A DNA stretch of 64,000 nt from Planctomycetota bacterium (GTDB lineage: Bacteria; Planctomycetota; UBA8742; UBA2392), in contig JABARW010000063.1 of NCBI GenBank assembly GCA_019186845.1, forward strand, positions 26,337 through 90,336. The letters run 5' to 3'. Position 1 is the stretch's first letter; the number at the start of each line of letters is the position of its first letter. Under the pieces are notes generated by a model that was given only the letters and a program-made list of their open reading frames with translations, searched no databases and was not told where the DNA came from. The position numbers were made by a program, and so were the translations under genes. Positions 13,605 through 55,110 of this stretch are shown here, piece by piece.

Positions 13605-13629
13605 CGCCCCAGATCAAGGAGACATCGAC

Positions 13630-14658
13630 ATGCTGCTGAAGACCCTGAGTTACTCGGCCCTGTGCGCGGGCCTGTTCGTGGGCGGCTTGAGCCTGTTTGC
13701 GCCCGCCACGGAAGCCTGCATCCACCCCGCCAAGACCTTCGAGTATCCCCTGCGCGCAGGCGCCCAGAGGGGCATCATCTTCTTCCACGACGGTCGCGAG
13801 GAACTGATCCTGCGACCCAGTTATCAGGTGGAGGTGGACAAATCCAAGATCCGCGAAGACGGCACCCTGCCCGGCCTGTCCACCCTGGCCTGGATCGTGC
13901 CCCTGCCCAGCCTGCCCGACCGCTACACCGAGGCCGACGACAGCCTGGTCACCGACCTTCAGAAGTTCGCCGCCGTCGAAACCGAACGACAGTGGCGCGG
14001 CGGTGCCGCCAAGGGGGCGGACCGCAAAAACCCCAGCCCGGCTGAGGATGGGGCCGAATTCCACGAGGAGGTCAAGGTGGGCAACTACACGATTCAGCCC
14101 ATCAAGGCCAGCGGTGAAAAGGGCGGCATTGAACTGAACGCCTGGCTCGACGAAAACGGCTTTGGCAAGGTCGCTGATGCGACGCTGAAGCACTACCTCG
14201 ACAAGGGCTACTACTGGCTGGCTGTCAAGCTGCACAAGAGCGAGGGCCTGCCCGCCAACGGCACCGTCAAGCCCCTGCAGATCAGCTTCGCTACAGACAA
14301 GCCTGTCTATCCGCTCAAGATAAACGCCGGCCGGGGCACCATTGACCTGGAGATGTGGCTGTTCATCAAGCAGAAGCTGGACGTCAAGTGCCTGGACGCC
14401 TACGGCCTCTGGCTGGCCGAAACTGAGCCCACCATGGGCGACGGCGCCGTCCAGAAGAACCGCGAAACCGCCTTTGACAAGCTGCCGGAGAGCGCAAGAA
14501 AGGCTCTGGAGGGCGCCATGGAACAGCAGAAGTCCCTCAGACCCCTCAAGGAAGGCCCGCTCTACTGCTACCGCGTCTTCGGACAGAATCTGGATCAAGG
14601 GGGCAAGCTCTCCAAACTTGACAAGGATCTTGAGTTCCGCTTCGAAGCAGCCAAGTAA
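13630..14658 (+). CDS. Secreted DUF2330-like protein, paralog 2
   Basis: AGGAG RBS before ATG 13630. Signal peptide, then EACIHP..AQRGIIFF..LILRPSY..TLAWIVPLPSLP. Colinear with the upstream gene at roughly 40% identity by eye. Confidence 0.55.
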   Translation: MLLKTLSYSALCAGLFVGGLSLFAPATEACIHPAKTFEYPLRAGAQRGIIFFHDGREELILRPSYQVEVDKSKIREDGTLPGLSTLAWIVPLPSLPDRYTEADDSLVTDLQKFAAVETERQWRGGAAKGADRKNPSPAEDGAEFHEEVKVGNYTIQPIKASGEKGGIELNAWLDENGFGKVADATLKHYLDKGYYWLAVKLHKSEGLPANGTVKPLQISFATDKPVYPLKINAGRGTIDLEMWLFIKQKLDVKCLDAYGLWLAETEPTMGDGAVQKNRETAFDKLPESARKALEGAMEQQKSLRPLKEGPLYCYRVFGQNLDQGGKLSKLDKDLEFRFEAAK

Positions 14659-14664
14659 CCTTCA

Positions 14665-14688
14665 AGGGGGCCCGGCAACGGGCCCCCT
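14665..14688 (+). terminator. GC-rich hairpin after DUF2330-like gene 2 (weak terminator candidate)
   Basis: AGGGGGCCCG-GCAA-CGGGCCCCCT, a 10-bp stem with a GNRA loop, 7 nt after the stop. No clear T-run. Confidence 0.35.
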
Positions 14689-14758
14689 GGGCTTGCCTTG
14701 CCCCATGCTGGCAAGGCGTGGCTGCGTTGCTACCATTCGCGCCCGACGCGTTGGGAGT

Positions 14759-14835
<77 letters not shown>

Positions 14836-14963
14836 ACGGGTCCCGATGGTGAACGCGGCAAACGCAGCGATGCCTGTTCGGCCCTTTGGGCCGGCCGCTG
14901 CGCTTACGCGCGGCTTGTGTGCCGCGCTGCTCCGCTTCGCCAACGCGCCACTGGCGCGTTGGC

Positions 14964-15004
14964 GGGTTCGAGTCCCAGCCGACCTACCAACGGGTCCTGA
15001 TGGT
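14964..15004 (+). repeat. Direct repeat of the tRNA-Lys 3' end plus 15 nt of flank (copy 2 of 14810-14850)
   Basis: GGGTTCGAGTCCCAGCCGACCTACCAACGGGTCC[C/T]GATGGT occurs at 14810-14850 and 14964-15004 (40/41 identical). Copy 2 lacks D and anticodon arms. Confidence 0.85.
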
Positions 15005-15078
15005 AGACGCCAAGAAGCGTGGCAACGCCTGTTCGTCCCTTCAGGCCGGTCGCTATATTGGAAATTCAGGAGCCTCTC

Positions 15079-15198
15079 ATGCTTGCAGCTCTCGACCACA
15101 ACGACATCATGGGCCTCATCACCTTTGCGGCCTCCGCTTCTCTCTGGGCCTTTGTCATCGGCCTGGCGCTCTGGTCCCAGTTCGCGCAGGAGCATTGA
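15079..15198 (+). CDS. Possible 39-aa small membrane protein
   Basis: AGGAG 7 nt upstream of ATG 15079. MLAALDHNDIMGLITFAASASLWAFVIGLALWSQFAQEH with one hydrophobic helix. Below the ORF-track size cutoff. No homology evidence. Confidence 0.25.
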   Translation: MLAALDHNDIMGLITFAASASLWAFVIGLALWSQFAQEH

Positions 15199-15287
15199 CC
15201 TCTTGGGCCGCGCAGGCCCGCCGGCGCTCTGCGCAGCCCCCGTGGATGCCCCAAGCGCCGCACAGGCCCCGGACCGGGCATTGAGCC

Positions 15288-17069
15288 ATGGCTGAAGAAC
15301 GCATCGAACCTGCCTCCCGCCGGCAGAACTCCGCCTCCACGACGCTGGCCATTCACTACACGGTGCGCATGCCGCACCCGGCCAGCCACAATTTCGAGGT
15401 GGAGATCGCGGTCAGCGGCGCGCCGGGTGAGGTGACTCTGGCGTTGCCCGCCTGGACTCCCGGCAGCTACAAGATCCGCGACTTTGCCAAGAACGTATCT
15501 AGTTTCCGCGCGCTAGATTCCCGCGGCGCCCTTGAAGTACGCCAGCTTGACAAGCAGCGCTGGCGCATCGCCCCGGGTCATCAGGGCCGCTTCAAGGCCA
15601 GCTTCACGCTCTACGCTGACGAGTTTTCCGTCCGCACCCCGCACCTCGATGACATGCACGGGTTCTTCCTCGGAACGAACCTGCTGCCCTACATCGAACG
15701 CGAAACGGGCTTTCCGGCCGCGGCCAGGCACAGCGTCACCGTGGTGCCGCCCCGGGGCTGGAAGGTGGCCACCGGGCTCAAACCCGTGAAGGGTAAGGCC
15801 TTCACCTATCTCGCCGAGGACTACGACATCCTGGGCGACTCCATCTTTGAGATCGGCACCCACGAACTGCACAGCTTCAAGGCCTTTGGCGTGCGCCACG
15901 ACGTCGCCATCGTGGGCTGGGGCAACTACAACGCCCGCCAGATGGTGGCTGACATCAAGAAACTCTGCGAGACCGAGCCCCGGCTGTTTGGCGGCGTCCC
16001 GTACGACTACTACCTTTTTGTGATTCACTGTTTCCCCGATGCCGGGGGCGGGCTGGAGCACCTCAACTCCTGCGTCTGCGGCTGGCCCAGCTTCAAATTC
16101 AAACCTCGCGAGGAATACGACAACTTCCTGCGCCTGGTAGCTCACGAGTACTTTCATGTCTGGAACGTCAAGCGCATCCGGCCCGCCATCCTGGGCCCCT
16201 TTGACTATTCGCGCGAGCAGCACACCCGCGCGCTGTGGGTCATGGAAGGGCTGACGCAGTACTACGAGAAACTCTGGTGCGCTCGCGCCGGCCTGCTGGG
16301 CGACGAAGCCCTGCTCAACAGCTACGCCGAGAACATCGACCGTGAAGACAACCGCCCGGGCCGCAAAGTCATGTCCCTGGAGGAGTCGAGCTGGCTGGCC
16401 TGGACCAAGCTTTATCAGGCCGACGAAAACTTCATCAACAGCGGCGTGAGCTACTACTCCCGGGGCTCCCAGGTGGGCTTTGTGCTTGATGCGCACCTGC
16501 GCGCCCTGACGGAGGGCGAAGGATCCCTCGATGATGTCATGAAGGCCGCCATGGACCGCTATGGCTGGCCCAAGCCCGGCTTTGCCGAGGGCGAGTTCGA
16601 GAAACTCTGCGCCGAGGTGGCGGGCCAATCCCTGGACGACTTCTTCGACGCCCACGTGCGCGGTACCTCTGAACTCGATTACCGCGAGGCCCTGCAGGTC
16701 TACGGTCTGGAGTTCAAGCACGACAAAGACGGGCACACACCCTGGCTTGGCCTGACCCACGGCACCAAAGACGGCGCCTTTCAGGTGCGGACTGTGGAGG
16801 CGGGCAGCCCCGCCATGGCCGCGGGCCTGCAGGTCCGCGATGAATTGCTGGCCCTCAACGGACATAAGGTCACCGCCAAGGACTTTGACGACCGTCTCAA
16901 GGACTGCCGCAAGGGCGACAAGATCAGCCTGGCCCTGTTCAGGCGCGGCAGGCTCGTCGAGGCACACCTGACCGTGGCTGAACGGCCCGCGGGCAAGCTC
17001 AAGCTGGTCCGGGTGGCCAAGCCCACGGCGCTTCAAGACAAGAACTTCCGTCGCTGGTTGTGGAAGTAA
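15288..17069 (+). CDS. M61-family (glycyl) aminopeptidase with C-terminal PDZ domain
   Basis: Zn motif in LVAHEYFHVWNVKRIRP, downstream WVMEGLTQYY, and a PDZ-like GAFQVRTVEAGSPAMAAGLQVRDELLALNG. Confidence 0.85.
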   Translation: MAEERIEPASRRQNSASTTLAIHYTVRMPHPASHNFEVEIAVSGAPGEVTLALPAWTPGSYKIRDFAKNVSSFRALDSRGALEVRQLDKQRWRIAPGHQGRFKASFTLYADEFSVRTPHLDDMHGFFLGTNLLPYIERETGFPAAARHSVTVVPPRGWKVATGLKPVKGKAFTYLAEDYDILGDSIFEIGTHELHSFKAFGVRHDVAIVGWGNYNARQMVADIKKLCETEPRLFGGVPYDYYLFVIHCFPDAGGGLEHLNSCVCGWPSFKFKPREEYDNFLRLVAHEYFHVWNVKRIRPAILGPFDYSREQHTRALWVMEGLTQYYEKLWCARAGLLGDEALLNSYAENIDREDNRPGRKVMSLEESSWLAWTKLYQADENFINSGVSYYSRGSQVGFVLDAHLRALTEGEGSLDDVMKAAMDRYGWPKPGFAEGEFEKLCAEVAGQSLDDFFDAHVRGTSELDYREALQVYGLEFKHDKDGHTPWLGLTHGTKDGAFQVRTVEAGSPAMAAGLQVRDELLALNGHKVTAKDFDDRLKDCRKGDKISLALFRRGRLVEAHLTVAERPAGKLKLVRVAKPTALQDKNFRRWLWK

Positions 17070-20787: not shown

Positions 20788-23649
20788 ATGCCGCGTCTGT
20801 TGATTGAAAAAGGGCCGGACCGAGGCAAAAGCCTGACGCTGAAGTTGGGCGACCAGGCCGTCGTGGGGCGCGACGCCCAGGCCAACCTTCAGCTGTCCGA
20901 CGTCATGTGCTCGCGCAAGCACTTCCTGATCGCGAGCAAGGGCAGCGTGTACGGCCTCAAGGACCTGGGTTCGGCCAACGGCACCCAGGTCAACGGCAAA
21001 ACCGCCGACGGCCCCGTCAAGCTGGCCCACGGCGACATGATCCAGTGCGGCGAGACCCTGCTTTCCTGGCTGGCCGACGAGTCAGACGCCAGGCAGGGCG
21101 GCCTGATCGGCCAGCAGATCGGCGGCTACCGCATCGAGATGCGCCTGGGCCGCGGCGCCATGGGCACCGTCTACAAGGCCATCCAGCTCTCGCTGGGCCG
21201 CATTGTCGCGCTCAAGGTGCTCTCGCCTGACCTGGTCAAAGACGCCAAATTCTGCGAGATGTTCCTCAAGGAAGCCCGGGCCGCGGGCGGCCTCAACCAT
21301 CCCAACATCATCCAGGTCTATGACGTCGGCGAGGAAAAGGGTCAGTACTACTTCTCCATGGAATTCGCCGCCAAGGGCAGCGTGCTGGATCTGCTCAACA
21401 GCGCCAAGCGCATCGAACTGCTGCGCGCCGTGGTCATTATCAAGGACGCCTGCCGCGCCCTGGACTACGCCGAGCGCAAGGGCCTGGTGCACCGCGACAT
21501 CAAGCCCGACAACCTGATGGTGATGGACGACGAAATCGTCAAGCTGGGCGACCTGGGACTGGCCATGAGCGCGCAGGAACTGCAGGGCGAGCAGGCCGGC
21601 GTTTTCGGCACGCCGCACTACATTGCGCCTGAACAGGCCATGGGCAAGCCCATTGACCACCGGGCCGACATCTACGCCCTGGGCGCGTCGTTCTATCGCA
21701 TCCTAACGGGCCAGACCCTGTTTACGGGCCAGACTGTCAAGGAAATCCTCAAGAAGCAGGTGCGCGACCCTCACCCGCCCGTCACGACACACCTGCCCGA
21801 TTGCCCGCCGGCCATCGTCACCATCATCGACAAGATGCTGGCCAAGAACCCGGCCGAGCGCTACCAGCACGCCAGCGATGTGCTCAACGACCTCGAAAAC
21901 TGGCAGTCCCTGGCCAGCAAGAAGGGAGGCGTGCAGCCCGCAGCCTTTGCCAAGGCGGTCAAGGCCCCCGGCGCCGAACTTCAGGAACAGATGGTGGCCT
22001 CCGCCCAGCGCCGCAACCTGGCCCTTGCAGCCATTGCCGCCGTCGTGGGGGTGGCGGCGCTCTCCATCATGGTCTGGGTGTTCTTTTTCAGTGACAGCCC
22101 CACGCCCAACACCAACGTGGCCGAGGCCAACAATACGCCGGCCAACCTGCCCCCCGCCAATTCCGGCAATGGCGGCGGCACGACCGCTCAGCTCACGCCC
22201 GAGCAGGAAAGCGCCAACCGCAAGCTCCAGCAGGCCATCGGCGCGGCACAGCTCTCCAGCAACAAGGGCGATCACGCCGCCGCCATTGCCATTCTTGAGA
22301 AGGCCCTCAAGGACAACGCCCTGGCGACAGAAAGCGCCCAGGCGGAAGCGCGCAAGTACCTTGAGCAGGTCAAGCTCAAGGCCGAGCAGGAAGGCCAGTC
22401 CGAACAGGCCATGCGCGAGGAGTGGTCTGAAACGCAACGGCACAAGGCGGCCAAAATCGAGGAGTACAAGTACAAGGCGGCTGACGACATCCTGCGCGGC
22501 TTCATTGAAAAGCACGCCGAAGTCCAGCACCCCGGCAAGAAAAAAATCTGGGACGACGCCGACGCCTACTGGCGCGCCCAATTCTGGGAGGATGTCAAGC
22601 GCCACATCGCCGCTTTGCGCCAATGGGTGGTCAAGCAGAGCGAGCAGGCCATCCTCGAGCAGGACCTGGAAAAGCGCCTCGCGATCTTCGAGGCCGCACA
22701 GTCAAAGGCACAAGGCGCCTTTGACGCCTGCGACCACGAAGACTCGCGCAAAGAGCTCAAAAAAATCCTCGATTCGGTCACGACCAACCTGGACATCGTC
22801 AAGCGCAGTATCTCCGATGAAAAGCGGCGCGTGATCGAACAGGCACTGGCCGAGTGCGAGCAGGCCGTGACTGATCTCTGCACCTCCGTGGGCAACGACA
22901 TCCAGCGCGGCGACTTCCGCTCGGCCATGTCGCGCGTGGACAACTACGAGAAGTCCGACAAGAACTGGAACCAGTACAAAGCAGACCCCCGATTTGCAGG
23001 CGTGGGCGAAGTCCTGCGCCGCCGCCGCGAGCAGACGCGCCATGAGCTGGAGGCCCTGCGCGCCTTGGGCGCGGGCGGCCGCGGTGCCCTGACTTCGGCC
23101 CCCAAACAGGCGGAACTGCTCAAACAAAAGCCCTGGCCCAAGGCCGCCGCCGACCTTTTCGGCTCCAAGGATGCGCGCTTCCGCATGGACGTCCAGGACG
23201 CCGCCGGCGACCGCCAGTTTACGCTCACGGTCTTCGTGGGCTCGAACAAGAGTGAATGGAGCGCGGGCGACTTCGCACCCAGCGGCAGCCGCAGCGCCGC
23301 CGGCCTGGCCGCGGCCATCACGCATCTCGCGCTCAACGACGACACCCTGCGCGCGGCATTGCTCCAGCCGGGCAGCGTCAAGGGCGACCCCCCGCTCGTG
23401 GCGGGGCTCTGGGCCTGGCTGGCGGAACTGGGCCACACCTATGAGATTTTCGCGCTGATGGACAGTTGCTATGCCCAGGCGCCGGTCGCCGACCCCGGGC
23501 GTGCCGTGTTCCGCGAATACATGGCTTACGCGCTCAAGGTACAGGCCCGCGACGAGTTGAATCGCGGCAACACCGCGCGCAGCGAGGATCTGATCCAGCG
23601 CCTGAATTCCGACGAGTTCGCGGGCACGCGTGCCCGCACCGCGAAGTAG
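20788..23649 (+). CDS. FHA-domain Ser/Thr protein kinase with TM helix and long helical C-terminal region
   Basis: N-terminal FHA (VVGRD..SRKHF..LKDLGSANGTQVNG). Hanks kinase (GRGAMGTVYKA..VALK..HRDIKPDNLM..DLGLA..GTPHYIAPE). TM (LALAAIAAVVGVAALSIMVWVFFF). About 500 aa helical tail. Confidence 0.85.
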   Translation: MPRLLIEKGPDRGKSLTLKLGDQAVVGRDAQANLQLSDVMCSRKHFLIASKGSVYGLKDLGSANGTQVNGKTADGPVKLAHGDMIQCGETLLSWLADESDARQGGLIGQQIGGYRIEMRLGRGAMGTVYKAIQLSLGRIVALKVLSPDLVKDAKFCEMFLKEARAAGGLNHPNIIQVYDVGEEKGQYYFSMEFAAKGSVLDLLNSAKRIELLRAVVIIKDACRALDYAERKGLVHRDIKPDNLMVMDDEIVKLGDLGLAMSAQELQGEQAGVFGTPHYIAPEQAMGKPIDHRADIYALGASFYRILTGQTLFTGQTVKEILKKQVRDPHPPVTTHLPDCPPAIVTIIDKMLAKNPAERYQHASDVLNDLENWQSLASKKGGVQPAAFAKAVKAPGAELQEQMVASAQRRNLALAAIAAVVGVAALSIMVWVFFFSDSPTPNTNVAEANNTPANLPPANSGNGGGTTAQLTPEQESANRKLQQAIGAAQLSSNKGDHAAAIAILEKALKDNALATESAQAEARKYLEQVKLKAEQEGQSEQAMREEWSETQRHKAAKIEEYKYKAADDILRGFIEKHAEVQHPGKKKIWDDADAYWRAQFWEDVKRHIAALRQWVVKQSEQAILEQDLEKRLAIFEAAQSKAQGAFDACDHEDSRKELKKILDSVTTNLDIVKRSISDEKRRVIEQALAECEQAVTDLCTSVGNDIQRGDFRSAMSRVDNYEKSDKNWNQYKADPRFAGVGEVLRRRREQTRHELEALRALGAGGRGALTSAPKQAELLKQKPWPKAAADLFGSKDARFRMDVQDAAGDRQFTLTVFVGSNKSEWSAGDFAPSGSRSAAGLAAAITHLALNDDTLRAALLQPGSVKGDPPLVAGLWAWLAELGHTYEIFALMDSCYAQAPVADPGRAVFREYMAYALKVQARDELNRGNTARSEDLIQRLNSDEFAGTRARTAK

Positions 23650-44741: not shown

Positions 44742-47700
44742 ATGCCCAGACTGGTCTTCAAAAAGGGCGAGCAGGCGCCGGTAGAGATGGCCGGCCCCAC
44801 AGTGCTTGGACGCTCGAGCGACCAGGCCCAGATCGCCATCAAGGACAACCGCCTTTCGCGGGCCCATTGCCGTTTTGAGCCCCGGGAAGACGGCCAATGG
44901 GCCATTGTGGACCTTGGCAGCCAGAATGGCACCTTCCTCAATGGCCGTCGCGTGCGCGAAAGCGTAGTCCGCCCCGGCGACGTCGTTACGATCGGACAGT
45001 GCGACATTCTGTTTGAGGCTACAGGCGGCCCCAGCGGCAGCGACCTGATGGCCGGGGTGGCCAGCACTCGCATCAACGCCACGCCCGCGGGCGGTCCGGC
45101 CATGGAGCCGGCCGAGGACAACCCTAACTCCACACGCACGGTGGTTGCTCCAGCGGCCCTGGCGCTGATTCAGGGCACGCTCAAGGACAAGATTTTCCCG
45201 CTGCTCAAGGACGAATTCGTCATTGGCCGCAAGGCCCCCTCCGACCTGATTCTGGAGGGAGACACCAAGGCCTCGGGCCAGCACGCAAAGATCACCCGCA
45301 AGGACGCCACCACCTGGGTCATCGAAGACCTCAAGAGCACCAACGGCGTGACCGTGAACGGCCACAAAGTGACGGAAGCCGTGGTGCTCAAGAATGGCGC
45401 CAAGATCATTGTTGGCCTTCAGACGTTTCAATTCACGCTGCAGGGCAAGCCGCCGGAAACCACGGGCGTCACGGCGCCCATGAGCGCCAAAGAAGTCCAA
45501 CAGAAGCTGGCCAAGGCCCAGGCGGCTGAGGCGGCCCCGCCGATGGACCTGGGCGACCCGTCCATCGGCGAGAAGAGCGAAACGCTGGACCGTCAGGCCC
45601 TGAACGTCGACGTCAAGGGCGGCGGAGGCGGCGGCCTCATTTTCTCGATTCTTGAAGTTGTACTGGCCCTGGCTGTGGTCGGCATGGTTCTGGGCGGCGG
45701 CTACATGCTGCTTCAGGAGAGTCCCGAGACCGTGGGCGGCGGTGGCACGACCAGCGAATCCCGCGATGGCGGGCTTTTGCAGGCCGCCAATTCGTCCATG
45801 GACAAACTTGACGCCGCCGGCATGCCCGAAGGCTGGAGTTTTGATCCCGTGGGCGGAGACTCCGTCTCCATGACCGAGGCCAGCCGCGGCGGCGCCCAGG
45901 CAGTGCAGCTGACGCGCTTCAACGCAAGCAATTCCATCTCCTATCTGTTCAGCGCTCCCATTGAGGTCAAGGGCATCGGCCTCAAGGCCAGTGTCTTTGC
46001 GGTCAACAGCGAACTCTCGGCCGGGCGCACGGGCACCGCCCTGCTTTCGCTCTTCTGGTACAAGGATTTCCGCGATCCCGCCATCGCCCGCACCCCTCTG
46101 GCTGCGGCCACCAACCTCACCACCTGGACGGAACTCAAGGGCGCATCGGCGGTGCCCCAGGGCGCCAAGTATGTGCGCCTGGCCCTGGGCATCACCGGAA
46201 AGTCCGGCAGCGTCGTATTTGACGACGCCCTGCTTCAGGATGACTCCACAGCGCCCGCAGCGGCCAAAGCCGCCAGCGTCGAGTTGAAGAACCGCCTGCG
46301 CTGGACCCTCGACGAAAACGGAGTGATCTCGCTGCTGGACCGCAGCGTGGTGCTGCTGCGCAACGGTGTGGTCATGCTGCATCAGGCCGACGGCCGCGCC
46401 GATCCCCTGGACCCTCGCCTCCTGCTGCTGGCGCCCCCTGCCGTCATCTCCGGAGAGTCGGGCATCAGCGTGAAGTACCAGTACTTTGACCCCATTGCGG
46501 AAAAGCCCGTCGAGCTGCGCATTGAACTGGGCGAGAATGCCTCACAGGCCACCCTGAACGCCTTGTTCAGCCCTGGCGGCGCTGACAAGGCCGCTTCCCG
46601 CCTGGCCCTGAGTTTCGTGGCCACGCCCGCCTTCGTGCCCAGCGAACTGGTGCGCCTGGAGGGTGAGCGCGTGGCAGACTACCGCCGTGAGATGCCTGAG
46701 GAAGGCCAGCGCATCAACCTTTCCACGGCCCTGGCTGCGGACACCGGCACGGGCAATCGCCTGGAAGCCCTGAACTCGACTTCGCCCCTGTTTGAAGCCC
46801 GGGCCGGCTCGGGCGGACGTGAGCTGTTCTTCCAGGGGCCTGCCACTGTGCAACTGGGTTTCTCGCTGGGCGGCGGCCGCGAAGAACTGGCGCAGCTGGC
46901 GGCCCTGGCTTCCGCCCTTCAGACGGGCGAGACCCAGCTGGACAGGCTGGCCCGCGCCCTGACAATTTTCCGCACCTATCCCTACAACCAGCGCGAGCTG
47001 ACTATCGCCGGCCAGGCCTGCGACAGCGCAGCAACGCACTACAAGCTGCGGCACCTCGAGTTGCGCGACGGCATCAATGTGCCCGACCTGCGCCGCAACG
47101 AGGGGCTCTACATCGCCGCCATGGACGAGTGCATCAGCGTGGCCGAGCAATTGCGCGCCCGCCAGCCTGAATGGGCCGATCAGTTCCTGCCGCTGTTGCG
47201 CGGCCTTGAAACCCCCAGCATGAGCGACGTGACGCAGCGCGCGGCGCGCCAGGCCCGCGGCGCGCTGGAAGACCTGCTGCGCAGTGCCGACGATTTCGAG
47301 GCCCTTTCGCGCGTGGCCAAGCGCGCCCGCTTCTGGCTGCGCGTCTCTATTGAGCAGCGCGACAGCGGCAACCTGCTCGCCAGCGCCCAGGATTTTCTGG
47401 AAAGCGGCCTTTCAACCCAGGGGCGCATCAAGCTGCGCACCATCGTTGAAAGTTACCCGCGCTGCCTCAATGGCATCTCGGCCAAGTCGCTCATGGTCGA
47501 ACAGGCGGAAGCCGTCTATGCCGAGGCGCTCCAGCGCCGTGCCGAGGGCCTCAATCAGATTGCCGGCGCCCTGCGCCAGCGCTGCAAGGAGTACCTGGAC
47601 CTGGTGGAAGCCAACCTGCTGACAAGCCCCCGCGTGCTCACCACTGAAGAGCGCGGCTGGCTGACCCGTCCCGACGAGGGCTCCGCTTCGGACCCCCGCA

Positions 47701-47768
47701 ACTGGCTGGAATTGGAAAACAAGATTGCGGACCGCATCAAGCTGCTGAGGGAGAAGCTGGCCAAGTAG
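44742..47768 (+). CDS. Twin-FHA membrane protein with extracytoplasmic jelly-roll-like and helical domains (1008 aa)
   Basis: FHA1 (VLGRS..SRAHCRF..IVDLGSQNGTFLNG). FHA2 (VIGRK..SGQHAKI..IEDLKSTNGVTVNG). TM (LIFSILEVVLALAVVGMVLGGGYMLL). Then a CBM4/9-like beta region ending GSVVFDDALLQDD. Confidence 0.7.
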   Translation: MPRLVFKKGEQAPVEMAGPTVLGRSSDQAQIAIKDNRLSRAHCRFEPREDGQWAIVDLGSQNGTFLNGRRVRESVVRPGDVVTIGQCDILFEATGGPSGSDLMAGVASTRINATPAGGPAMEPAEDNPNSTRTVVAPAALALIQGTLKDKIFPLLKDEFVIGRKAPSDLILEGDTKASGQHAKITRKDATTWVIEDLKSTNGVTVNGHKVTEAVVLKNGAKIIVGLQTFQFTLQGKPPETTGVTAPMSAKEVQQKLAKAQAAEAAPPMDLGDPSIGEKSETLDRQALNVDVKGGGGGGLIFSILEVVLALAVVGMVLGGGYMLLQESPETVGGGGTTSESRDGGLLQAANSSMDKLDAAGMPEGWSFDPVGGDSVSMTEASRGGAQAVQLTRFNASNSISYLFSAPIEVKGIGLKASVFAVNSELSAGRTGTALLSLFWYKDFRDPAIARTPLAAATNLTTWTELKGASAVPQGAKYVRLALGITGKSGSVVFDDALLQDDSTAPAAAKAASVELKNRLRWTLDENGVISLLDRSVVLLRNGVVMLHQADGRADPLDPRLLLLAPPAVISGESGISVKYQYFDPIAEKPVELRIELGENASQATLNALFSPGGADKAASRLALSFVATPAFVPSELVRLEGERVADYRREMPEEGQRINLSTALAADTGTGNRLEALNSTSPLFEARAGSGGRELFFQGPATVQLGFSLGGGREELAQLAALASALQTGETQLDRLARALTIFRTYPYNQRELTIAGQACDSAATHYKLRHLELRDGINVPDLRRNEGLYIAAMDECISVAEQLRARQPEWADQFLPLLRGLETPSMSDVTQRAARQARGALEDLLRSADDFEALSRVAKRARFWLRVSIEQRDSGNLLASAQDFLESGLSTQGRIKLRTIVESYPRCLNGISAKSLMVEQAEAVYAEALQRRAEGLNQIAGALRQRCKEYLDLVEANLLTSPRVLTTEERGWLTRPDEGSASDPRNWLELENKIADRIKLLREKLAK

Positions 47769-47784
47769 CCGCGCGAGGAGAGGC

Positions 47785-49443
47785 ATGCCGTACGGTATCG
47801 ACATCGGGTCGTCGCTCACCATGCTCGTGAATCTCACGGGCAAGGGAAGTGCCATGAAGCTGCAGAAGGCCATGGTGCTCCCCGGCGTGAAGATTGACAC
47901 CGAACTCAAGCCGGAAAGTTACGCCTCCCACGCCCTGGGCACGACCTGGCGCGGCCTGAGCTCTCTGGGCGTCCGGGCGGGCAGGCCCGTCTCGCTCATT
48001 CCGGGCCGCGACATCGTGTATCGGACGCTGGCCGTCAGCGGGCCGGATTCCCGCGTGATCCAGTCCATGGTGCGCCTGGAAGCCGACGAGATTTCAGGCG
48101 GCAGCGGCGGCATTCTGGGCGACTTTATGATGGGTGCCGCGCCGGATGGCTCGCCCGTGGCGCTGATCGGGCTGGCACGAGACGCGGTGGTCGACCATTA
48201 CGCATCCTGCCTGCTCAAGATGGGCGTGGACCCCACACTGCTCGTGCCGGGCTGCGCGGCGCTGTTTTCCGCCTATCAGCTCGCCGGGGACGTAACGTTT
48301 GAGGGTGTTTACCTGCTGGCGAACATCGGCGATGAAGTCACGGACGTCATCATGGTCAAGGAGGGCAACCTGCTGTTTGCCCGCACGGTGGCCATTGGCG
48401 TGTCCGATTTCATAGACCGCCTCGCGCCCGAGTACGGCGGAGACCGTGACAGCATCCGCCAGATCCTGTTCCGGGACATCGACCTGCGGCCCAGCGTCGC
48501 CGCCGAGAACATCGCCGCAGACCGCGGCGTCGAAGCCGGCCAGGAAGTGGCATCGCGCCTGTTTCAGCAGATTGGCGGCGTGATCATGCTGGCCAAGGGC
48601 GCCCACGGCGACCCCAAGCTGGACGCTTCACGCATTGCCCTGTGCGGACCCGGCGCCGCGGTGCCGGGCCTGCGCGAGCTGATGATGCACCGCACGCGCA
48701 AGACGGTCGAAGTTTTTGACCCGCTCAACGGCGTTTCACTCGACGGCCTCGACGACGCCAGCAAGGAAACCGCCGAGATTTATCGGCCGGCCCTTGCCCT
48801 GGCCGTGGGCCTGGCCCGCATCGGCAACGAGAAGGACAGCAAGTACCTGAACTTCGTGCCGGGCTCCGTGCGTAAGCGGCGCGAATTCCTGAACAAGAGC
48901 CTGTTCCTTTATCTGGCGGCGGCCGTGGTGCTGGCCGTGATGCTGCCGGCCTATGCCCTGACCCAGAAGGCCGCGGCGGACGTGGAGAAAGGCGCGCGCG
49001 AACTGCAGGGCGAAGTGGGCCGCTATGCCAGCGCCTCGGGCCAGCTGCCGGCACGGACTGATGCCCTGGAAGAGGCCCAGCGGCGCTCAAAAGTGTCCCT
49101 GGACGCCATTGCTCCGGGTCATACTGCGACGGAGCTGCTCGTGGCCTTTGCGGAAAAACGGCCCGAGACTGTTCAGATCCGCAAGGTCATTCTCGAACCC
49201 GGCAAGAAGGCCCAGGCCGAGAAGGGCGCTGAGAAGCCTCGCGTCGTATTCGAGTTCTTCGTTGAAAGGCGCGGCACATCCGACCCCGCCCAGGTCGTCA
49301 TCGAGCTTCAGGGCCTGCTGAAGAAGCTGCCCGGCGTGGCGGATGTCCAGCAGAAGGGCGAGGCCAAGCAGAACACCCAGGTTCAGGGTCTGGACGTGGT
49401 GTTTGCCGTGGAACTGAAGATTGAAGAGGAGGTGCGCCCGTGA
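47785..49443 (+). CDS. PilM-like actin-fold ATPase fused to TM plus PilN-like domain (GspL-like architecture)
   Basis: GAGGAG RBS. YGIDIGSSLTMLV.., LLANIGDEVTDVIMV..FARTVAIGVSDF, IALCGPGAAVPGL. TM FLYLAAAVVLAVMLPAYAL. About 170-aa C-terminal domain. Confidence 0.65.
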   Translation: MPYGIDIGSSLTMLVNLTGKGSAMKLQKAMVLPGVKIDTELKPESYASHALGTTWRGLSSLGVRAGRPVSLIPGRDIVYRTLAVSGPDSRVIQSMVRLEADEISGGSGGILGDFMMGAAPDGSPVALIGLARDAVVDHYASCLLKMGVDPTLLVPGCAALFSAYQLAGDVTFEGVYLLANIGDEVTDVIMVKEGNLLFARTVAIGVSDFIDRLAPEYGGDRDSIRQILFRDIDLRPSVAAENIAADRGVEAGQEVASRLFQQIGGVIMLAKGAHGDPKLDASRIALCGPGAAVPGLRELMMHRTRKTVEVFDPLNGVSLDGLDDASKETAEIYRPALALAVGLARIGNEKDSKYLNFVPGSVRKRREFLNKSLFLYLAAAVVLAVMLPAYALTQKAAADVEKGARELQGEVGRYASASGQLPARTDALEEAQRRSKVSLDAIAPGHTATELLVAFAEKRPETVQIRKVILEPGKKAQAEKGAEKPRVVFEFFVERRGTSDPAQVVIELQGLLKKLPGVADVQQKGEAKQNTQVQGLDVVFAVELKIEEEVRP

Positions 49444-50375
49444 ACTTCCTCAAGCTCCATGCACGGTTTCTGGTTGCCCTGGTGCTGCTCATGGGCCTGG
49501 TGGGGTTTGGCTATTCCCAGGTCAATGAAATGGCCGACAACGTGGCCCGCAAGCAGACCTCCCTGACATCGAGCCTCAAGACGCACTACAAGCGCATCTT
49601 CGACGACGCCAAGTCCGCCGGCGGCAATCCCGCCAACGTGCAGGGACTGGTGCTGGGCGAGAAAACCCAGCGCGTGCAGGAACTGGAAGAGCGCCGCAAC
49701 AGCCTGCTGACCTTCCGGCCGGACCCCGCCTTCACGTTGGCGGCGGTCAAGGGCGGTCCGGAAGGCGTAAGCGACGCCGACAAGGTGAACTACTTCTATG
49801 CCGTGCGCCTCGACCTGAAGAAGGAACTGGTGCGCGCGCGCTACTTCAAGCCGGACCTGGATGCGGACAACGCCCTGGGCTTCTCTACGCCCAAAGAAGG
49901 CGTGAAGGCCGAGCAGGTTGCGGAGTTCCTGTTCAAGATGGACATGGCGCGCGAAGTCGCCCGCTGCGTCGAGCGGTCCGGCACCCAGGTGCTGGAAAGC
50001 CTCAAGTTTGAGGACGCCCGCGGTATCGAGCTGCTGGCCCAGCGAGGCCTGCCTGTCCAGAAGGTCCAGAGCGAAGCCCCCTACCTCGAGGCGCGCACCC
50101 TGAACTTCAACGTACGCGGCACCGAGCGCGCCATCTACAACCTGCTGATCGAGCTGCAGCGGCCCGTGAAAGGTGACCTGCGCGAACGCTATCTGGCCGT
50201 GGAGAATTTCACGCTTTCCAAGCCCGACCTGCTGGACCCTGCCGACGACCTGGTCTCGGCCTCCTTCATGGTCGTGGCCTATCGCGTGAACAAGGATGGC
50301 GCTGTGCCCGGCGGCAAGCGGCAGGCGGAGACAACGACGACAGCCCCCGTCAGCGGCGGCGGGCGTTACAGGTAA
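49440..50375 (+). CDS. Bitopic membrane protein, PilO/GspM-like by position and architecture
   Basis: GTG start overlaps the upstream stop (GTGA). N-terminal TM FLVALVLLMGLVGFGY, then coiled coil, then a mixed alpha/beta region. No sequence motif recognised. Confidence 0.4.
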   Translation: MNFLKLHARFLVALVLLMGLVGFGYSQVNEMADNVARKQTSLTSSLKTHYKRIFDDAKSAGGNPANVQGLVLGEKTQRVQELEERRNSLLTFRPDPAFTLAAVKGGPEGVSDADKVNYFYAVRLDLKKELVRARYFKPDLDADNALGFSTPKEGVKAEQVAEFLFKMDMAREVARCVERSGTQVLESLKFEDARGIELLAQRGLPVQKVQSEAPYLEARTLNFNVRGTERAIYNLLIELQRPVKGDLRERYLAVENFTLSKPDLLDPADDLVSASFMVVAYRVNKDGAVPGGKRQAETTTTAPVSGGGRYR

Positions 50376-50379
50376 GGCC

Positions 50380-50880
50380 ATGAACGACATCATCCAGAAA
50401 CTCGGTGAGCACAAGGAAAAGCTGCTGTTCGGCTTTGTCGTGCTGGTGGCCCTGCTCGTGGCCCTCAAGGCGCCCCTGGGCGGCGCAGGGGTGGAGAGCA
50501 TCAACAGCACCCAGCGCCAGGGCGCCATTTCCGCGGCCGGCCTCGACCAGGCCAAGGCCGACCAGATTCTCAAGCAGGTGAAGTCGCCCGAGCCGCCCAA
50601 GTCCCTGCCGCTTGATGAAAAGGCCATCGTGCGCCGCTTCTACGATGACCGCGCCGCCTTCAAGCCCGCCAAGGGCTCGGCCTTCGTGCGCGGCACGGAA
50701 TCGCTGGAGCGCCTGCCGGCGCTTTCCGTCAGCTTTCCCGGCTTTCCGCGCCTGCCGGATTATGACCTGATTGCGGGGCCCACCCCCGAAGCCGCCCGCC
50801 AGCGCGCGTACGTGCCGCGCGACACGCGCCCCGTGGCCCTCACGCGCAAGGAGACCAGCGAGTTCGGGGGTGACAAGTGA
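50380..50880 (+). CDS. Small bitopic membrane protein (166 aa)
   Basis: ATG 50380, 4 nt after the upstream stop. TM LLFGFVVLVALLVAL. No motif. Confidence 0.4.
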   Translation: MNDIIQKLGEHKEKLLFGFVVLVALLVALKAPLGGAGVESINSTQRQGAISAAGLDQAKADQILKQVKSPEPPKSLPLDEKAIVRRFYDDRAAFKPAKGSAFVRGTESLERLPALSVSFPGFPRLPDYDLIAGPTPEAARQRAYVPRDTRPVALTRKETSEFGGDK

Positions 50881-53822
50881 CCCGCTTGCTGCCCTGGCTT
50901 GTGCTGCTGCCGCTCCTGGCGCCCGCCCTGTTCGGTCAGGCCCCGCTGCCGGACGCCACGCTGGAAAAACCCCGCACCAACCTGGTGATCCGCGTGCAGG
51001 GGGCGACGCGCGACTGGGAGGTCATGCCCCTGGCCATCAAGAAGGGCGGCACCACGATTGCCAGCACGGCCAATGATTTCCGGCTCGAACGAGACAAGTG
51101 GGAGCGCACAGGCGCGCCCAAGCGCTACCGTCTCGACAAGTGGCGCAAGGTGTTCAATGACTTCACGGATACGGCACCCCAGGCCCAGGGTGCCTTCTTC
51201 GAGTTTCAGGCCCGCGCGCCGCGCACGCCCACCCTGGCCGGCGTGGTCGAGGAGCGCACGTCCGGCCGCAGCACCTATTTCCGCGTGCCGTGTGACAAAG
51301 TGAAGGTCCTTGGCTATCCCCAGACCTGGGTCAACATCTACGAAGACTACGTCGGGCAATTCGAAGGCGATCAGCGTCGCCTGGCCGTCAAGGCCTGGGA
51401 GGAGGCCAATCGCTCCCTGATTGAAAACGCCGACCAGGTGGCCTCCGGCTTCTCCGCCGAAGAGCGCAATGATTTCGCCGAGTTCTACCAGAAGCAGTTC
51501 GTCTACGTCCGCGACCGCAACCCGCAGCTGGCCTCGATTTACCAGGAGCTGGCCGAGTACCACCGCCAGCGCGGCAACCTCGACGCCGAACTCTCCACCT
51601 ACCTCGACGGCATCGAGAACAAGGTGCCCTCGCCTCAGATGGAGGAATTCAACCTCAACGTGGGGCGCATCTTCGTGACGCGCCTGCTGCTGCACCGTCA
51701 GGCCCTGCCCTATCTCCAGGCCGCGCGGGCATTCTCCGAGGCCCGCGTGCTGGCCGCGCGCTGCCACATCGAGCTCGGAGAACTGGACCAGGCCCGCGAG
51801 ATGCTCAAGAGCCTGTTGGCCGCTATTGCGTCCAGCGCCGCGGACCTCGTGCTGGAGCTGACGCCTGAGAACGAGACCGGCCGCGCCAACCTGCTGCTGG
51901 CGCGCGTCGAGTTCAGTGAGGCCAATTACGCCGGGGCCGAGGCCACCATCAAGCTGATTCCTCAGGCCTCCACGAGCTGGCAGGAGGGGCAGCTGCTGTT
52001 TGCCGCCATGCTTACACAGCGGGGCCTGCGCGACGACTTCCAGAAAGTCAAAGAGACGCTGGACCCCCTGCCGAAGATGGCCGAGGCCAAGCGTCTGACC
52101 AGCACCAAATCTACGGACCCCAACCTGATCTATCCCTACGACCCCGCCATGTGCGAGGCGCTGGTGCTGTATGCCCAGACGGACGCCCAGTTCCGCCAGC
52201 CCATCGAGACCGGAGACAAGCCCCCGGTCAAGCCCAGCGACGCCGTGCTGCGCATGCTGGAAGTGGCCAAGGCCACGGACCCCCTCTCCGCCGAGCCCTA
52301 TCTGGCCGAGGGCCGTCTCAAGCAGCGGCTGGGGGATTTCCCCGGGGCGCTGGAGGCCTACATGGCGGGACTGGTGATTGACCCGGGCAACGTGCGCCTG
52401 AACTACGCCGTCGCCGCGCTTCGCTACAAGGCGGGCGTGGTGAGCGAGGCCAAAGACCTGGCGTCACGCTGCCTGCGGCAGAACCCCAAGTTCCACCCGG
52501 CCCTGGTTCTGCTGGGCGAAATTGCCCTGTCCGACCTTGATCGCCTGCGCGACGACCTGATGCAGCGTCGCGCCGCGGGCGAAAAGGTGGCCTTCGAAAG
52601 CGAGCTGCTTGGCCCTTTGAAGGAAGCAACAGCCTTCTTCCAGGGCGCGCTGGAAGTCCAGCCCGCGCAGCCGGAAGTCAAGTTGACGCTGGCCTCGCTC
52701 TACCTGCAACTGGCAGACATCACCCCGGCCACCATGAACGTGAAAGCCGACGCCGATGACGTGCGGCGCGCCTACCTGGTCAAGGCCCGGGACCTGGCGG
52801 GAGAGCTCATGGCCGCCGTGCGCAAACTGGGCGAACGATCCAGCGTGGACGAACAGGCCACGGCCTCCGAAATCGCGGCCACACCCACGCCCGCCTGCTT
52901 CAACGTTTACGCGGCAGCCTGCTACGCCATGGGCGAGTACGCCCAGGCGCGAAGCGCACTGGAAGAGCACCTAGCCATTCTGCGCGGCCCCAACGCCCGC
53001 AAGCACTTCGCCAGCAATCGCGTGCTCAGTGATTACCGCAACTCCGAGCATGTGAAGTACGCCGAGCGCTGGCTGGCGGCCATTCGTGCCAACGAGCGCC
53101 AGTACGTCGAGCGCGAAGAGTTCTCCGGCGAGTTCAAACCTGATTTCTACGGGCAATGGAACATCGTCAACGCGCCCAAGCCGGACCTTTCTTTTATGAA
53201 ATCGACCGGCGCCGGCATCAAGGACGGCAAGCTCACCATCGGGCTGGCGGGCCAGAAAGAGGCCTTCGTCGTCAGCCGGCTGTCCGTGCCCAAGAACTAT
53301 GCCACGCTGACCCGCTTTTCCGCCCGCTTTGACAAGCGCGGCGAGCAGTTGTTCCACCGCGGCGTATCGCTGACCAAGCTTTCATCCAATACGGGCAAGC
53401 CCGGTCTGGCGCCCGTCAATTGTGTGATGCTGGGCATCGACCCCCAGGGGCAGGTGTTCTGGCAGGTGCGTCGCTTCAAGCTCGACGACCAGGCCCGCCA
53501 GGAAGAGGTCGTGGCCGGAGACCTGATTGATGTGCGCCGCTACAACGGCCCCCTCGACAAGGACGCTCCCCTCACGCTGGCCCTGGTGCGGCGCCTCTCC
53601 ACAGACCGCAGCAACATTGTGTTCGTGGCGGTCATCAACGGTTACGAAGTGGAGTTGACCCTGCCCGAGGGCCTCGACGACGTGCGCCGCAACGACCTCG
53701 AAGACAAGTCGCTCCAGATCGATTGCGGCTTCTTTGTCTGGGCTCTCTCCGATGTCGCGGGCGAGTTCAGCGTGGACAGCGCCCAGTTCGTCTTCGACAG
53801 CGGCCTGGGCAAGCCGGAGTAA
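50877..53822 (+). CDS. Secreted TPR-repeat protein with C-terminal beta-sandwich-like domain (981 aa)
   Basis: GTG start overlaps the upstream stop. Signal peptide LLPWLVLLPLLAPALFGQA. Multiple TPR-like helical pairs (e.g. AEGRLKQRLGDFPGALEAYMAGLVIDPGN). About 230-aa C-terminal beta-rich region. Confidence 0.6.
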   Translation: MTRLLPWLVLLPLLAPALFGQAPLPDATLEKPRTNLVIRVQGATRDWEVMPLAIKKGGTTIASTANDFRLERDKWERTGAPKRYRLDKWRKVFNDFTDTAPQAQGAFFEFQARAPRTPTLAGVVEERTSGRSTYFRVPCDKVKVLGYPQTWVNIYEDYVGQFEGDQRRLAVKAWEEANRSLIENADQVASGFSAEERNDFAEFYQKQFVYVRDRNPQLASIYQELAEYHRQRGNLDAELSTYLDGIENKVPSPQMEEFNLNVGRIFVTRLLLHRQALPYLQAARAFSEARVLAARCHIELGELDQAREMLKSLLAAIASSAADLVLELTPENETGRANLLLARVEFSEANYAGAEATIKLIPQASTSWQEGQLLFAAMLTQRGLRDDFQKVKETLDPLPKMAEAKRLTSTKSTDPNLIYPYDPAMCEALVLYAQTDAQFRQPIETGDKPPVKPSDAVLRMLEVAKATDPLSAEPYLAEGRLKQRLGDFPGALEAYMAGLVIDPGNVRLNYAVAALRYKAGVVSEAKDLASRCLRQNPKFHPALVLLGEIALSDLDRLRDDLMQRRAAGEKVAFESELLGPLKEATAFFQGALEVQPAQPEVKLTLASLYLQLADITPATMNVKADADDVRRAYLVKARDLAGELMAAVRKLGERSSVDEQATASEIAATPTPACFNVYAAACYAMGEYAQARSALEEHLAILRGPNARKHFASNRVLSDYRNSEHVKYAERWLAAIRANERQYVEREEFSGEFKPDFYGQWNIVNAPKPDLSFMKSTGAGIKDGKLTIGLAGQKEAFVVSRLSVPKNYATLTRFSARFDKRGEQLFHRGVSLTKLSSNTGKPGLAPVNCVMLGIDPQGQVFWQVRRFKLDDQARQEEVVAGDLIDVRRYNGPLDKDAPLTLALVRRLSTDRSNIVFVAVINGYEVELTLPEGLDDVRRNDLEDKSLQIDCGFFVWALSDVAGEFSVDSAQFVFDSGLGKPE

Positions 53823-53825
53823 GCC

Positions 53826-54506
53826 ATGGTCGCCAGGCGCGGCTTCACCCTGATTGAACTCATGATCGTGATCGCGATTATCGTCGTGATTGCGGGCGTG
53901 CTCGTGGCCAGCTTCGGCGGCGTATTCAGCAAGCGTGATGACGCCGTGGCCAAGACCACGATCGAGACTCTGAGCTCCAACATCCAGAGCTTCCAGGGTC
54001 GCTGGCACAGCTACCCGCCGGGCAGCGTGGAGGCGCTTTCGGTCATGGCGCGCTCGGCCATTCCGGTGGCCGATCCCAATGAAGTCAACTGCGGCATCGA
54101 GGCGCTGGTGCTGGCCTTGCGGTCAAGGAAGAACGGCGGGGCCTACCTCTCCGCCGATCTTTTCGCCAACGACGAATACCGCAAGAATACCGATGCCGAC
54201 ACGCTCATGGACGACCCCTTCGACATCGACGGTTCACGGGACCTGTTCGAGATCGTCGATCCCTGGGGCACGCCCTATGTCTATGTGAACATGAACGAGC
54301 TGCGCAACGGCAAGGTCAAGCAGAGCATTCAGCTTGAGGACGGCACGGTGGTTGAACTCAACCTCACCGAGATGCAGGAGAAGCTCAAGCACCCCACCAC
54401 CGGCCAGTACCCGACAGGCTACGCCATCTGGAGCTTCGGCGCGGACAAGAAGAACGATTACGGACGCGGTGACGACGTCACCAGCTGGCCCAAGTACAGC
54501 GACTAG
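53826..54506 (+). CDS. Type II secretion / type IV filament major pseudopilin (GspG-like)
   Basis: Prepilin cleavage/methylation motif RRG|FTLIELMIVIAIIVVIAGVL (Glu at +5). C-terminal SFGADKKNDYGRGDDVTSW resembles the GspG signature. Confidence 0.75.
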   Translation: MVARRGFTLIELMIVIAIIVVIAGVLVASFGGVFSKRDDAVAKTTIETLSSNIQSFQGRWHSYPPGSVEALSVMARSAIPVADPNEVNCGIEALVLALRSRKNGGAYLSADLFANDEYRKNTDADTLMDDPFDIDGSRDLFEIVDPWGTPYVYVNMNELRNGKVKQSIQLEDGTVVELNLTEMQEKLKHPTTGQYPTGYAIWSFGADKKNDYGRGDDVTSWPKYSD

Positions 54507-54513
54507 CCCGGTC

Positions 54514-55110
54514 TCACGCAGACGCGGGGTCTTTCCATTCGCCGCGCAGGGCGGCATAGCAAACGGTGTCCCGGCGGCTGCCGTCGGGGTCCACGCTGTG
54601 CGAGCGCAGCACGCCCTCCTTGAGCATCCCGGCCTTCTCCGCCACGCGCTGACTGGCACCATTGGCGCCGCTGCAGCGCCAGGCCAGCCTCAGCCAGGGC
54701 CACTCGCCAAAGCCCCAGGCCAGCAGCGCGCGCAGCACGGCGCTGCCCAGGCCGCGGTAGGCCGCGTCGCCGCGAATCCACATGCCGATCTCGGCGTTGC
54801 GCAACTCCAGGCCGCCTTCGCGCAGGTGAAAGCCGGTGCCGCCCAGCAGGCGAGACTCATCCGGCGCCCAGATGCCCAGCACGAACTCCGTGGAGCTGAG
54901 GTATCTGCCTGCGAAGTCGCGGCAGCGCCCCTCGCTTTCCTCGACGCTCTGGTGGGGCTTGGCCCAGGGCATGAAGGTTTTGAGATGCGCATAGGAGGCG
55001 TTCACAGCCTCGGCCAGTCTTTCGCCGTCTCCGGGCCTGTAGGCGCGCACGACAAAGTCAGCGCGGGCCAGGCGCTGCGGTGCCGCGAGATAGTTCAGCG
55101 ACTCGCCCAT
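54514..55110 (-). CDS. GNAT-family N-acetyltransferase (RimJ/RimL-like)
   Basis: 198 aa. AEIGMWIRGDAAYRGLGSAVLRALLAWGF acetyl-CoA-binding motif A pattern. N..S.RV.EK.G. Confidence 0.75.
   Translation of the reverse strand: MGESLNYLAAPQRLARADFVVRAYRPGDGERLAEAVNASYAHLKTFMPWAKPHQSVEESEGRCRDFAGRYLSSTEFVLGIWAPDESRLLGGTGFHLREGGLELRNAEIGMWIRGDAAYRGLGSAVLRALLAWGFGEWPWLRLAWRCSGANGASQRVAEKAGMLKEGVLRSHSVDPDGSRRDTVCYAALRGEWKDPASA

Follow-up and report, generated by a model that had tools for sequence, protein, structure and literature searches.

We analyzed a 64,000-nucleotide stretch of the genome of a Planctomycetota bacterium (assembly GCA_019186845.1, contig JABARW010000063.1, positions 26,337 to 90,336 of the forward strand; hereafter, the window) and found six adjoining plus-strand genes, g1 to g6 (Table 1), headed by a gene for a protein with two FHA domains. 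Judging from the sequence, we consider it reasonably probable that the six genes constitute one operon and that this operon encodes two parts of a type IV filament machine that is specific to Planctomycetota and of the type II secretion system (T2SS) kind, namely its inner-membrane and periplasmic platform and its major fibre subunit. Read in this way, the machine is a split and undescribed variant of a T2SS-like system, probably gated by Ser/Thr phosphorylation. It is known here from its genes alone, through their structure, domain and fold assignments, synteny, trans-encoded parts and co-occurrence with one type of GspF, and from these we infer how it may assemble, which partners it may use, how phosphorylation may gate it and what it may move. 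The operon joins a platform of the secretion/pilus class with a phospho-threonine (pThr) reader and glycan-module-like periplasmic parts, and no description of it was found in the literature.

All six open reading frames (ORFs) listed in a preliminary description of this DNA were present, and the tight junctions reported between them were confirmed (16, -4, +4, -4 and +3 nt, with GTGA stop/start overlaps at 49440 and 50877). The longest ORF for g4 would begin at 50296; we set its start at 50380 because the N-termini of the orthologues share the motif MxxIIxKLxEHKEKLLFGF. A scan of the operon for promoters and terminators gave signals at chance level only.

The g2 protein consists of an actin-fold cytoplasmic domain (aa 4-344), a transmembrane (TM) helix at approximately aa 368-390, and a periplasmic domain of about 160-170 aa. 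It passed the Pfam model PF11104 (PilM_2; 33.9 bits, cut-off 27) and matched Myxococcus xanthus PilM in the PDB (3jc8, E 2.9e-7); its score with the PilM model TIGR01175 was 73.6 bits, under the cut-off of 133. The Amuc_1101_fam equivalog model (NF045709) matched over aa 282-450 only, with 57.9 bits, and failed its cut-off of 650, and the GspM model NF040576 weakly matched the TM region (E 0.008). When the periplasmic part was compared by hhalign with the genome's own PilN and with g3, neither comparison was significant. Thus, of the PilM-PilN fusion proposed earlier, the PilM domain and the GspL-like architecture stood, and the kinship of the periplasmic part with PilN did not find support in the profile comparison.

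We next turn to g3, for which an AlphaFold2 model was built from an alignment of 22 homologues (predicted local distance difference test score, pLDDT, 79). The model has an N-terminal TM helix, a long coiled coil and a ferredoxin-like alpha-beta core. In a Foldseek search of the PDB with the model, the top ten matches were all Amuc_1100 (E 2e-7 to 1e-6, TMt 0.58-0.66, 9-11% identity), and the next ones were PilO of M. xanthus (3jc8_O, E 1.8e-4) and Pseudomonas aeruginosa (2rjz, E 8e-4). Going by this predicted structure, the likeness of g3 to Amuc_1100 is a fold-level kinship inside the PilO class. At the sequence level, g3 had no match in Pfam or NCBIfam and none in the PDB, either as a single sequence or as a profile of 22 sequences, and only 29 clusters of homologues were found at E<1e-3 among 1.84 billion representative proteins; on these searches, its sequence is narrow and fast-evolving. 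The earlier assignment of a PilO/GspM-like bitopic protein is therefore borne out by the fold of the model and not by the sequence. A match to RecA in the PDB was rejected because it stems from a concatemer chain. The C-terminus of g3 (50330-50375) is a short basic tail that follows a disordered linker, is conserved among orthologues (PRKFR, PRTFR, GRYR, and PRRRR) and could be a docking peptide.

The last gene, g6, encodes a prepilin-type protein with the leader MVARRG/FTLIE (N_methyl, 29.4 bits). Its globular core, which has two insertions, scored 22.7 bits with Pfam T2SSG (cut-off 21) and 42.5 bits with the GspG model TIGR01710 (under the cut-off of 88.85). In the PDB, the g6 profile matched the N-terminal helices of pilins and GspG. 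The residues D145, W147, P150, Y153, S203, G205, D207, D216, and D217 were invariant in 10 orthologues. Accordingly, the GspG-like pseudopilin seen earlier from its G/FTLIE leader has a core that is weak in score and conserved.

To place the operon among relatives, we searched 60 related genomes (G-numbers) with g2 and then retrieved 37 loci (L-numbers). The complete order of FHA gene, PilM fusion, PilO-like gene, small bitopic gene, large TPR gene and pilin gene was found within the same family and taxonomic order (L041-L047), and the same order with variations recurred in many further families of Planctomycetota. In 25 of the 37 loci, the FHA gene immediately preceded the gene for the PilM fusion. 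Among the variations were an extra gene for a soluble FHA protein upstream and a second, larger pilin-like gene (440-580 aa) downstream, the latter directly after g6 in at least six sampled lineages. Genes flanking the operon were not conserved. In this genome, a gene for an S26 peptidase lies 167 nt before g1, and the downstream neighbour is convergent. Because the flanks differ everywhere, the six genes themselves mark the boundaries of the unit, and because the order recurs in the same family and in others with such differing flanks, the arrangement is not due to chance. Scattering of the genes in relatives had been named beforehand as evidence against a functional unit; what we found is synteny across a phylum in which few gene orders are retained, this operon being one of them. 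The 20 kb loci of relatives had no adjoining ATPase, platform or secretin gene, except a PilT-like gene about 6 kb upstream in one genome (G055). No named cultured species was retrieved in a homologue search with a diverse alignment of g2, and database labels of the operon proteins are "pilus assembly protein PilM," "tetratricopeptide repeat protein," and "hypothetical."

The preliminary description had stated that the operon lacks a secretin, a GspE/PilB ATPase, a GspF/PilC platform protein and a prepilin peptidase, which was confirmed by profile search. The absence extends to the whole contig of the window (C11 in our numbering of the assembly's contigs), on which the profiles T2SSE, T2SSF, secretin and Peptidase_A24 had zero matches. 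The assembly (3.7 Mb, 89 contigs, approximately 88% complete) does encode candidates for all of these parts on other contigs: three GspE-type ATPases (C1, C2, and C38) and two PilT-like ATPases, three GspF-type platform proteins (C70, C47, and C78), four secretins (C88, C41, C80, and C45), and a single prepilin peptidase (C29). Profiles made from the operon orthologues also detected three PilM-type modules, namely g2, C54 and C89, making the operon a third, paralogous PilM system in this genome. We infer that the equal numbers of GspE-type ATPases, platform proteins and PilM modules, three of each, would fit three separate systems, two of which are already accounted for by the C54 and C89 modules.

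One of the platform proteins tracks the operon. When an orthologue of the C70 GspF was defined by at least 45% identity over the core, so that presence calls rest on identity thresholds, 45 of the 60 genomes had both this GspF type and the g2 type, five had g2 only, two had the GspF only and eight had neither (Fisher p = 1.9e-5; p = 0.002 with one genome per family). We then sampled the loci of this GspF type in 18 other genomes, of which 14 do not belong to the window's family. In 11 of the 18 loci, a secretin-GspE-GspF cluster ends with this GspF gene; among the proteins of this genome, the C41 secretin and the C1 GspE come closest to the secretin and ATPase of the cluster. The cluster is without L-, M- and G-type parts, which are exactly those present in the FHA operon. 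From this complementarity and the co-occurrence, the secretin-GspE-GspF cluster is likely the missing core of the operon. In the window's own family, the cluster is dispersed and the GspF gene lies beside a PilT-like gene; a PilT-like ATPase is the neighbour of this GspF in G005, G011, G013, and G014, in place of the kinase found next to it here (see below). At its N-terminus, the C70 GspF is extended by about 235 aa, which include additional hydrophobic segments. This extension is kept within the family, where matches begin near residue 30; outside the family it is mostly absent, and a short stretch at residues 30-80 or so still aligns.

Table 1. Genes of the FHA operon in the window and other features of this genome and a related locus (C, contigs of the same assembly unless a G-numbered genome is given; positions without a contig are those of the window)
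Feature	Location	Strand	Length	Description
g1	44742..47768	+	1008 aa	double-FHA bitopic protein
g2	47785..49443	+	552 aa	PilM-like fusion, GspL-like architecture
g3	49440..50375	+	311 aa	bitopic, PilO/GspM class by fold
g4	50380..50880	+	166 aa	small Pro-rich bitopic protein
g5	50877..53822	+	981 aa	secreted TPR protein, beta domains at both ends
g6	53826..54506	+	226 aa	prepilin-type, GspG-like core
Downstream neighbour	54514-55110	-		convergent to operon
FHA-kinase fusion	20788-23649	+	953 aa	N-terminal FHA fused to Hanks-type kinase
Amuc_1101-type module	C89:2-1930 and C80:2384-13917	-	640+ aa (PilM fusion)	PilM fusion at C89 start
GspF	C70:1386-3128	-		platform protein with N-terminal extension
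Membrane Ser/Thr kinase	C70:3142-6153	+	1003 aa	divergent from C70 GspF
Ser/Thr kinase	C38:253-1749	-		divergent from C38 ATPase
GspE-type ATPase	C38:2844-4772			third GspE-type ATPase
g1 paralogue	C24:18290-21025	-	911 aa	two FHA domains, TM helix, periplasmic domain
g1 paralogue	C56:8753-9697	+	314 aa	two FHA domains, C-terminal TM helix only
Pilin-like genes	C44:18770-22652	-		run of four or five genes
L045 interval	G021:C2, ~12339-15881			154-aa ORF after g4 and split g5 orthologue, in operon orientation

The twin FHA domains recognized in g1 were borne out by Pfam (121 bits over two stretches) and lie at approximately aa 20-90 and 140-230 on the cytoplasmic side, ahead of a TM helix at about aa 298-325. 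The pThr-binding residues are G23/R24/S39/H42/N62 in FHA 1 and G162/R163/S178/H181/N201 in FHA 2, and these residues, which include the canonical Arg, Ser, His and Asn, were invariant or nearly so in both domains across 13 orthologues. In the periplasm, a CBM22-like jelly roll follows at approximately aa 345-500; profile positions 348-493 matched the CBM22 of the Clostridium thermocellum xylanase Xyn10B (2wys/2w5f, E 8e-6). The last 500 or so residues are periplasmic and without a domain match. Isolated segments of g1, g2, g4, and g5 gave no usable domain in Pfam at E<=10. g1 also matched PF16697 (Yop-YscD_cpl), through its FHA-like cytoplasmic part only, and gave partial matches to GltG and TagH in NCBIfam. 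Two g1 paralogues were found in the genome. The alignment of the one on C24 to g1 extends well beyond the TM helix, and neither this nor the one on C56 adjoins pilus or secretion genes.

The genome contains 34 matches to Hanks-type Ser/Thr kinases. One is a membrane kinase immediately divergent from the C70 GspF, and another lies directly upstream of the type IVa pilin cluster. With the pThr-binding residues intact in both FHA domains of g1, a kinase-gated assembly step through g1 is plausible by analogy with Fha1/TagH of the type VI secretion system (T6SS). As side observations, an FHA-kinase fusion is encoded in the window 21 kb upstream of the operon and is a possible source of pThr marks for g1, and a further kinase on C38 lies approximately 1 kb from the third GspE-type ATPase and has at its N-terminus a helical motif typical of GspE N-terminal domains (KQGILNKDQV...).

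g4 encodes an N-terminal TM helix followed by a Pro-rich periplasmic tail and has no family match in Pfam or NCBIfam. The gene is kept in position in L041-L047, L049, and L054. In L048, L050, L051, and L055 there is no separate g4, and the protein at the g5 position has at its own start a TM helix and a Pro-rich stretch like that of g4; the apparent fusion in these four distant loci was judged by eye, the g4 hidden Markov model being not significant there. Since g5-position proteins have their own TM/Pro-rich start where a separate g4 is absent, g4 is likely a membrane tether for g5. The g5 protein itself consists of a signal peptide, a beta domain (aa 33-146), a TPR-like alpha-solenoid (aa 150-741), and an all-beta domain (aa 742-975), as taken from the secondary structure of its AlphaFold2 model (pLDDT 87). 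Pfam recognized TPR_19, TPR_14, and related repeats, and a Foldseek search with the whole model returned TPR superhelices only. With a profile of the C-terminal beta domain, neither the PDB nor Pfam yielded a match. Hence, the secreted TPR protein with a beta-sandwich C-terminus, as first described, is upheld by the model to the extent that the C-terminal domain is all-beta. In one relative (L045), a 154-aa ORF lies between g4 and g5, and the g5 orthologue is split into ORFs of 473 and 552 aa; the N-terminus of the 154-aa ORF resembles, by eye, an IS200/Y1-type transposase, which points to a mobile element or an assembly error.

From these features, we propose the following mechanism. The actin-fold domain of g2 would, like GspL, dock a GspE-type ATPase and be joined through the membrane to its periplasmic domain, where g3 would pair with it in the manner of GspM/PilO. 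g6 would be cut by the single prepilin peptidase of the genome and polymerized into a pilus or pseudopilus. g4 would anchor g5 to the inner membrane, and g5 could bridge the wide planctomycete periplasm toward an outer-membrane channel. g1 would be an added bitopic subunit, the FHA domains reading pThr marks set by Ser/Thr kinases and the CBM-like domain facing the periplasm, and its probable function is to scaffold or gate assembly. The motor, the platform protein and the channel would be supplied in trans, the best candidates being the C1 GspE, the C70 GspF and the C41 secretin. With three PilM systems in the genome, a locus elsewhere that is closer to that of Akkermansia, and a core that tracks the operon, the seemingly "incomplete" cluster thereby becomes a testable model of a split, kinase-gated, T2SS-like machine.

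Several observations weigh against this proposal. None of the six proteins matched Pfam T2SSL, T2SSM, PilN or PilO, and g2 and g6 remained under the trusted NCBIfam cut-offs for PilM and GspG, respectively. The operon has no minor pseudopilins. In the loci examined, it never adjoins the secretin-GspE-GspF cluster, and the co-occurrence with GspF is uncorrected for phylogeny, rests on identity thresholds and includes seven discordant genomes. In some lineages, g2-g3 modules occur without the FHA gene, so that g1 is not obligatory for the class. Furthermore, G017 keeps the GspE_C1 type without g2 and the GspF_C70 type; because this ATPase is retained and the genome is 82% complete, we rejected co-loss in G017 as a proof of a functional unit.

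The comparison with characterized machines supports the earlier view of a non-canonical module of the T2SS/type IV pilus kind, as do the profile, fold and synteny results. With the T2SS, the operon shares the GspL architecture of g2, the GspM/PilO fold class of g3, and the prepilin leader and weakly scoring GspG-type core of g6 (D-x-W-G-x-P-x-x-Y and S-x-G-x-D...DD), and related lineages add the secretin-GspE-GspF cluster, devoid of L, M and G, whose GspF tracks it. In contrast to the T2SS, g2 and g3 do not qualify for the GspL and GspM families by sequence (no Pfam T2SSL or T2SSM match), no GspC with HR/PDZ domains is encoded, GspH-I-J-K are not in the operon, the genes here are spread over several loci, and the operon has two additional subunits, the bitopic g1 with its double FHA and CBM-like domains and the nearly 1000-aa TPR/beta-sandwich protein g5. 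For these two subunits, we found no counterpart in the literature searched on these machines. FHA-bearing subunits are known in SctD/YscD of the type III secretion system, TagH/Fha1 of the T6SS and GltG of M. xanthus, and g1 resembles them in its cytoplasmic FHA part, single TM helix and large periplasmic domain, and in heading the operon of a machine. It differs from them in having two FHA domains with intact pThr-binding residues and, from SctD, in a periplasmic part that begins with a CBM22-like jelly roll in place of ring-building motifs; unlike SctD, TagH and GltG, it goes with a platform of the pilus/T2SS class.

We also considered whether the operon is simply the PilMNO alignment complex of the organism's ordinary type IVa pilus. 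The g2 proteins of relatives are annotated as PilM, g2 has a PilM fold by sequence (PF11104; 3jc8_M), g3 is PilO-like by fold, and g6 is a pilin with a class III signal peptide. However, the PilM domain of g2 is fused to a TM/periplasmic part, with no separate PilN, and neither PilP nor PilQ is encoded in cis. Moreover, a canonical PilM of 416 aa is encoded on C54 (TIGR01175, 184 bits, above the cut-off) beside a separate 228-aa bitopic gene at the PilN position, with a cluster of pilin and minor-pilin genes upstream, and this locus probably continues into the C88 secretin. We give this explanation hardly any credence. Nor does a role outside filament machines fit well, in which an FtsA/PilM-like actin would organize the envelope or budding with FHA and TPR proteins in these FtsZ-less bacteria, the pilin being co-opted or incidental. 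PilM does belong to the FtsA/actin family, its paralogues here gave weak FtsA matches, division and morphogenesis often involve FHA and TPR proteins, and no ATPase, platform or secretin gene lies in cis. Against these points stand the position of the pilin gene, which is kept across the phylum and in at least six lineages is followed by a second pilin-like gene, the PilO/Amuc_1100 fold of g3, and the co-occurrence with one GspF type, which together leave a division function very improbable.

Another comparison is with the pilus-like locus Amuc_1098-1102 (MUL2) of Akkermansia, likewise of the PVC superphylum, of which our operon might be the orthologue with a function in glycan attachment or uptake. 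The Akkermansia locus comprises the PilM-like Amuc_1101, Amuc_1100, and the pilin-like Amuc_1102, with no FHA or TPR genes as described (PMC13174399). Thus, a PilM-like fusion followed by bitopic proteins and a pilin-like gene are common to both, the best structural matches of g3 are all the Amuc_1100 crystal structure (at the fold level only), g2 partially matches the Amuc_1101 family model, and g1 has a CBM-like domain. The operon, on the other hand, has FHA and TPR genes and no adjoining secretin, and another locus of the same genome fits the Amuc_1101 family far better. This module spans C89 and C80, which we joined because the first bases of C89 recur in C80, roughly 130 nt before the end of that contig. 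It encodes, in order, a PilM fusion, a 344-aa bitopic protein, a 649-aa EF-hand bitopic protein, a 901-aa secretin, and TPR proteins of 1340 and 456 aa. The C89 protein scored 204 bits with the Amuc_1101 model vs 58 for g2, both being far under the cut-off of 650. Given these scores and an adjacent secretin, which the Akkermansia locus also has (Amuc_1098), it is the C89/C80 locus rather than our operon that most resembles the Amuc_1098-1101 layout. Its PilM type was present in all 61 sampled Planctomycetota genomes, always separate from the FHA operon, and g3 showed no significant similarity to its 344-aa protein by hhalign or hmmsearch. We therefore regard orthology with MUL2 as unlikely. 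The operon nevertheless holds a structural cousin of Amuc_1100, a much-studied Akkermansia surface protein.

The two loci might also be halves of one machine, in which C89/C80 would supply the channel and a second PilM ring and the operon the fibre, FHA gate and TPR bridge. The operon has a pilin and no secretin, C89/C80 has a secretin and no pilin, both are widespread in the phylum, and three GspE and three GspF would be compatible with sharing. However, the loci were never adjacent, near-complete genomes included; each comes with a PilM fusion and a bitopic partner of its own, a sign of separate platforms; the C89 type occurs in genomes without the FHA operon (G030, G032, G034, and G060); and the GspF that tracks the operon clusters with the other secretin type, that of C41. 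A two-part machine is thus quite improbable, and a T2SS-like machine completed by the dispersed C1, C70 and C41 genes is the reading that we prefer.

What such a machine would act on may be related to the cell biology of the phylum. Planctomycetota take up whole polysaccharides and have dextran-binding fibres and envelope-spanning, press-stud-like crateriform complexes, the genetic basis of which is unknown (PMC5394234). These structures are an attractive but unproven target for the operon. In the specific form that the operon and the dispersed core build one type of crateriform complex and the glycan-binding fibres, we consider the idea rather unlikely. In that case, uptake would begin with the capture of polysaccharide by the g6 polymer, the CBM-like domain of g1 and g5, from which it would pass to the enlarged periplasm; Ser/Thr kinases would turn the process on via the FHA domains, and the other crateriform type would be a product of the universal Amuc_1101-type module. 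If true, structures described only from microscopy would thereby be identified at the molecular level (PMC5394234).

Finally, a run of four or five pilin-like genes was found on C44. Among their products are a 379-aa prepilin and a paralogue of g6 that resembles GspG (E 1.6e-16 to the g6 profile), and the run is possibly a set of minor pseudopilins.

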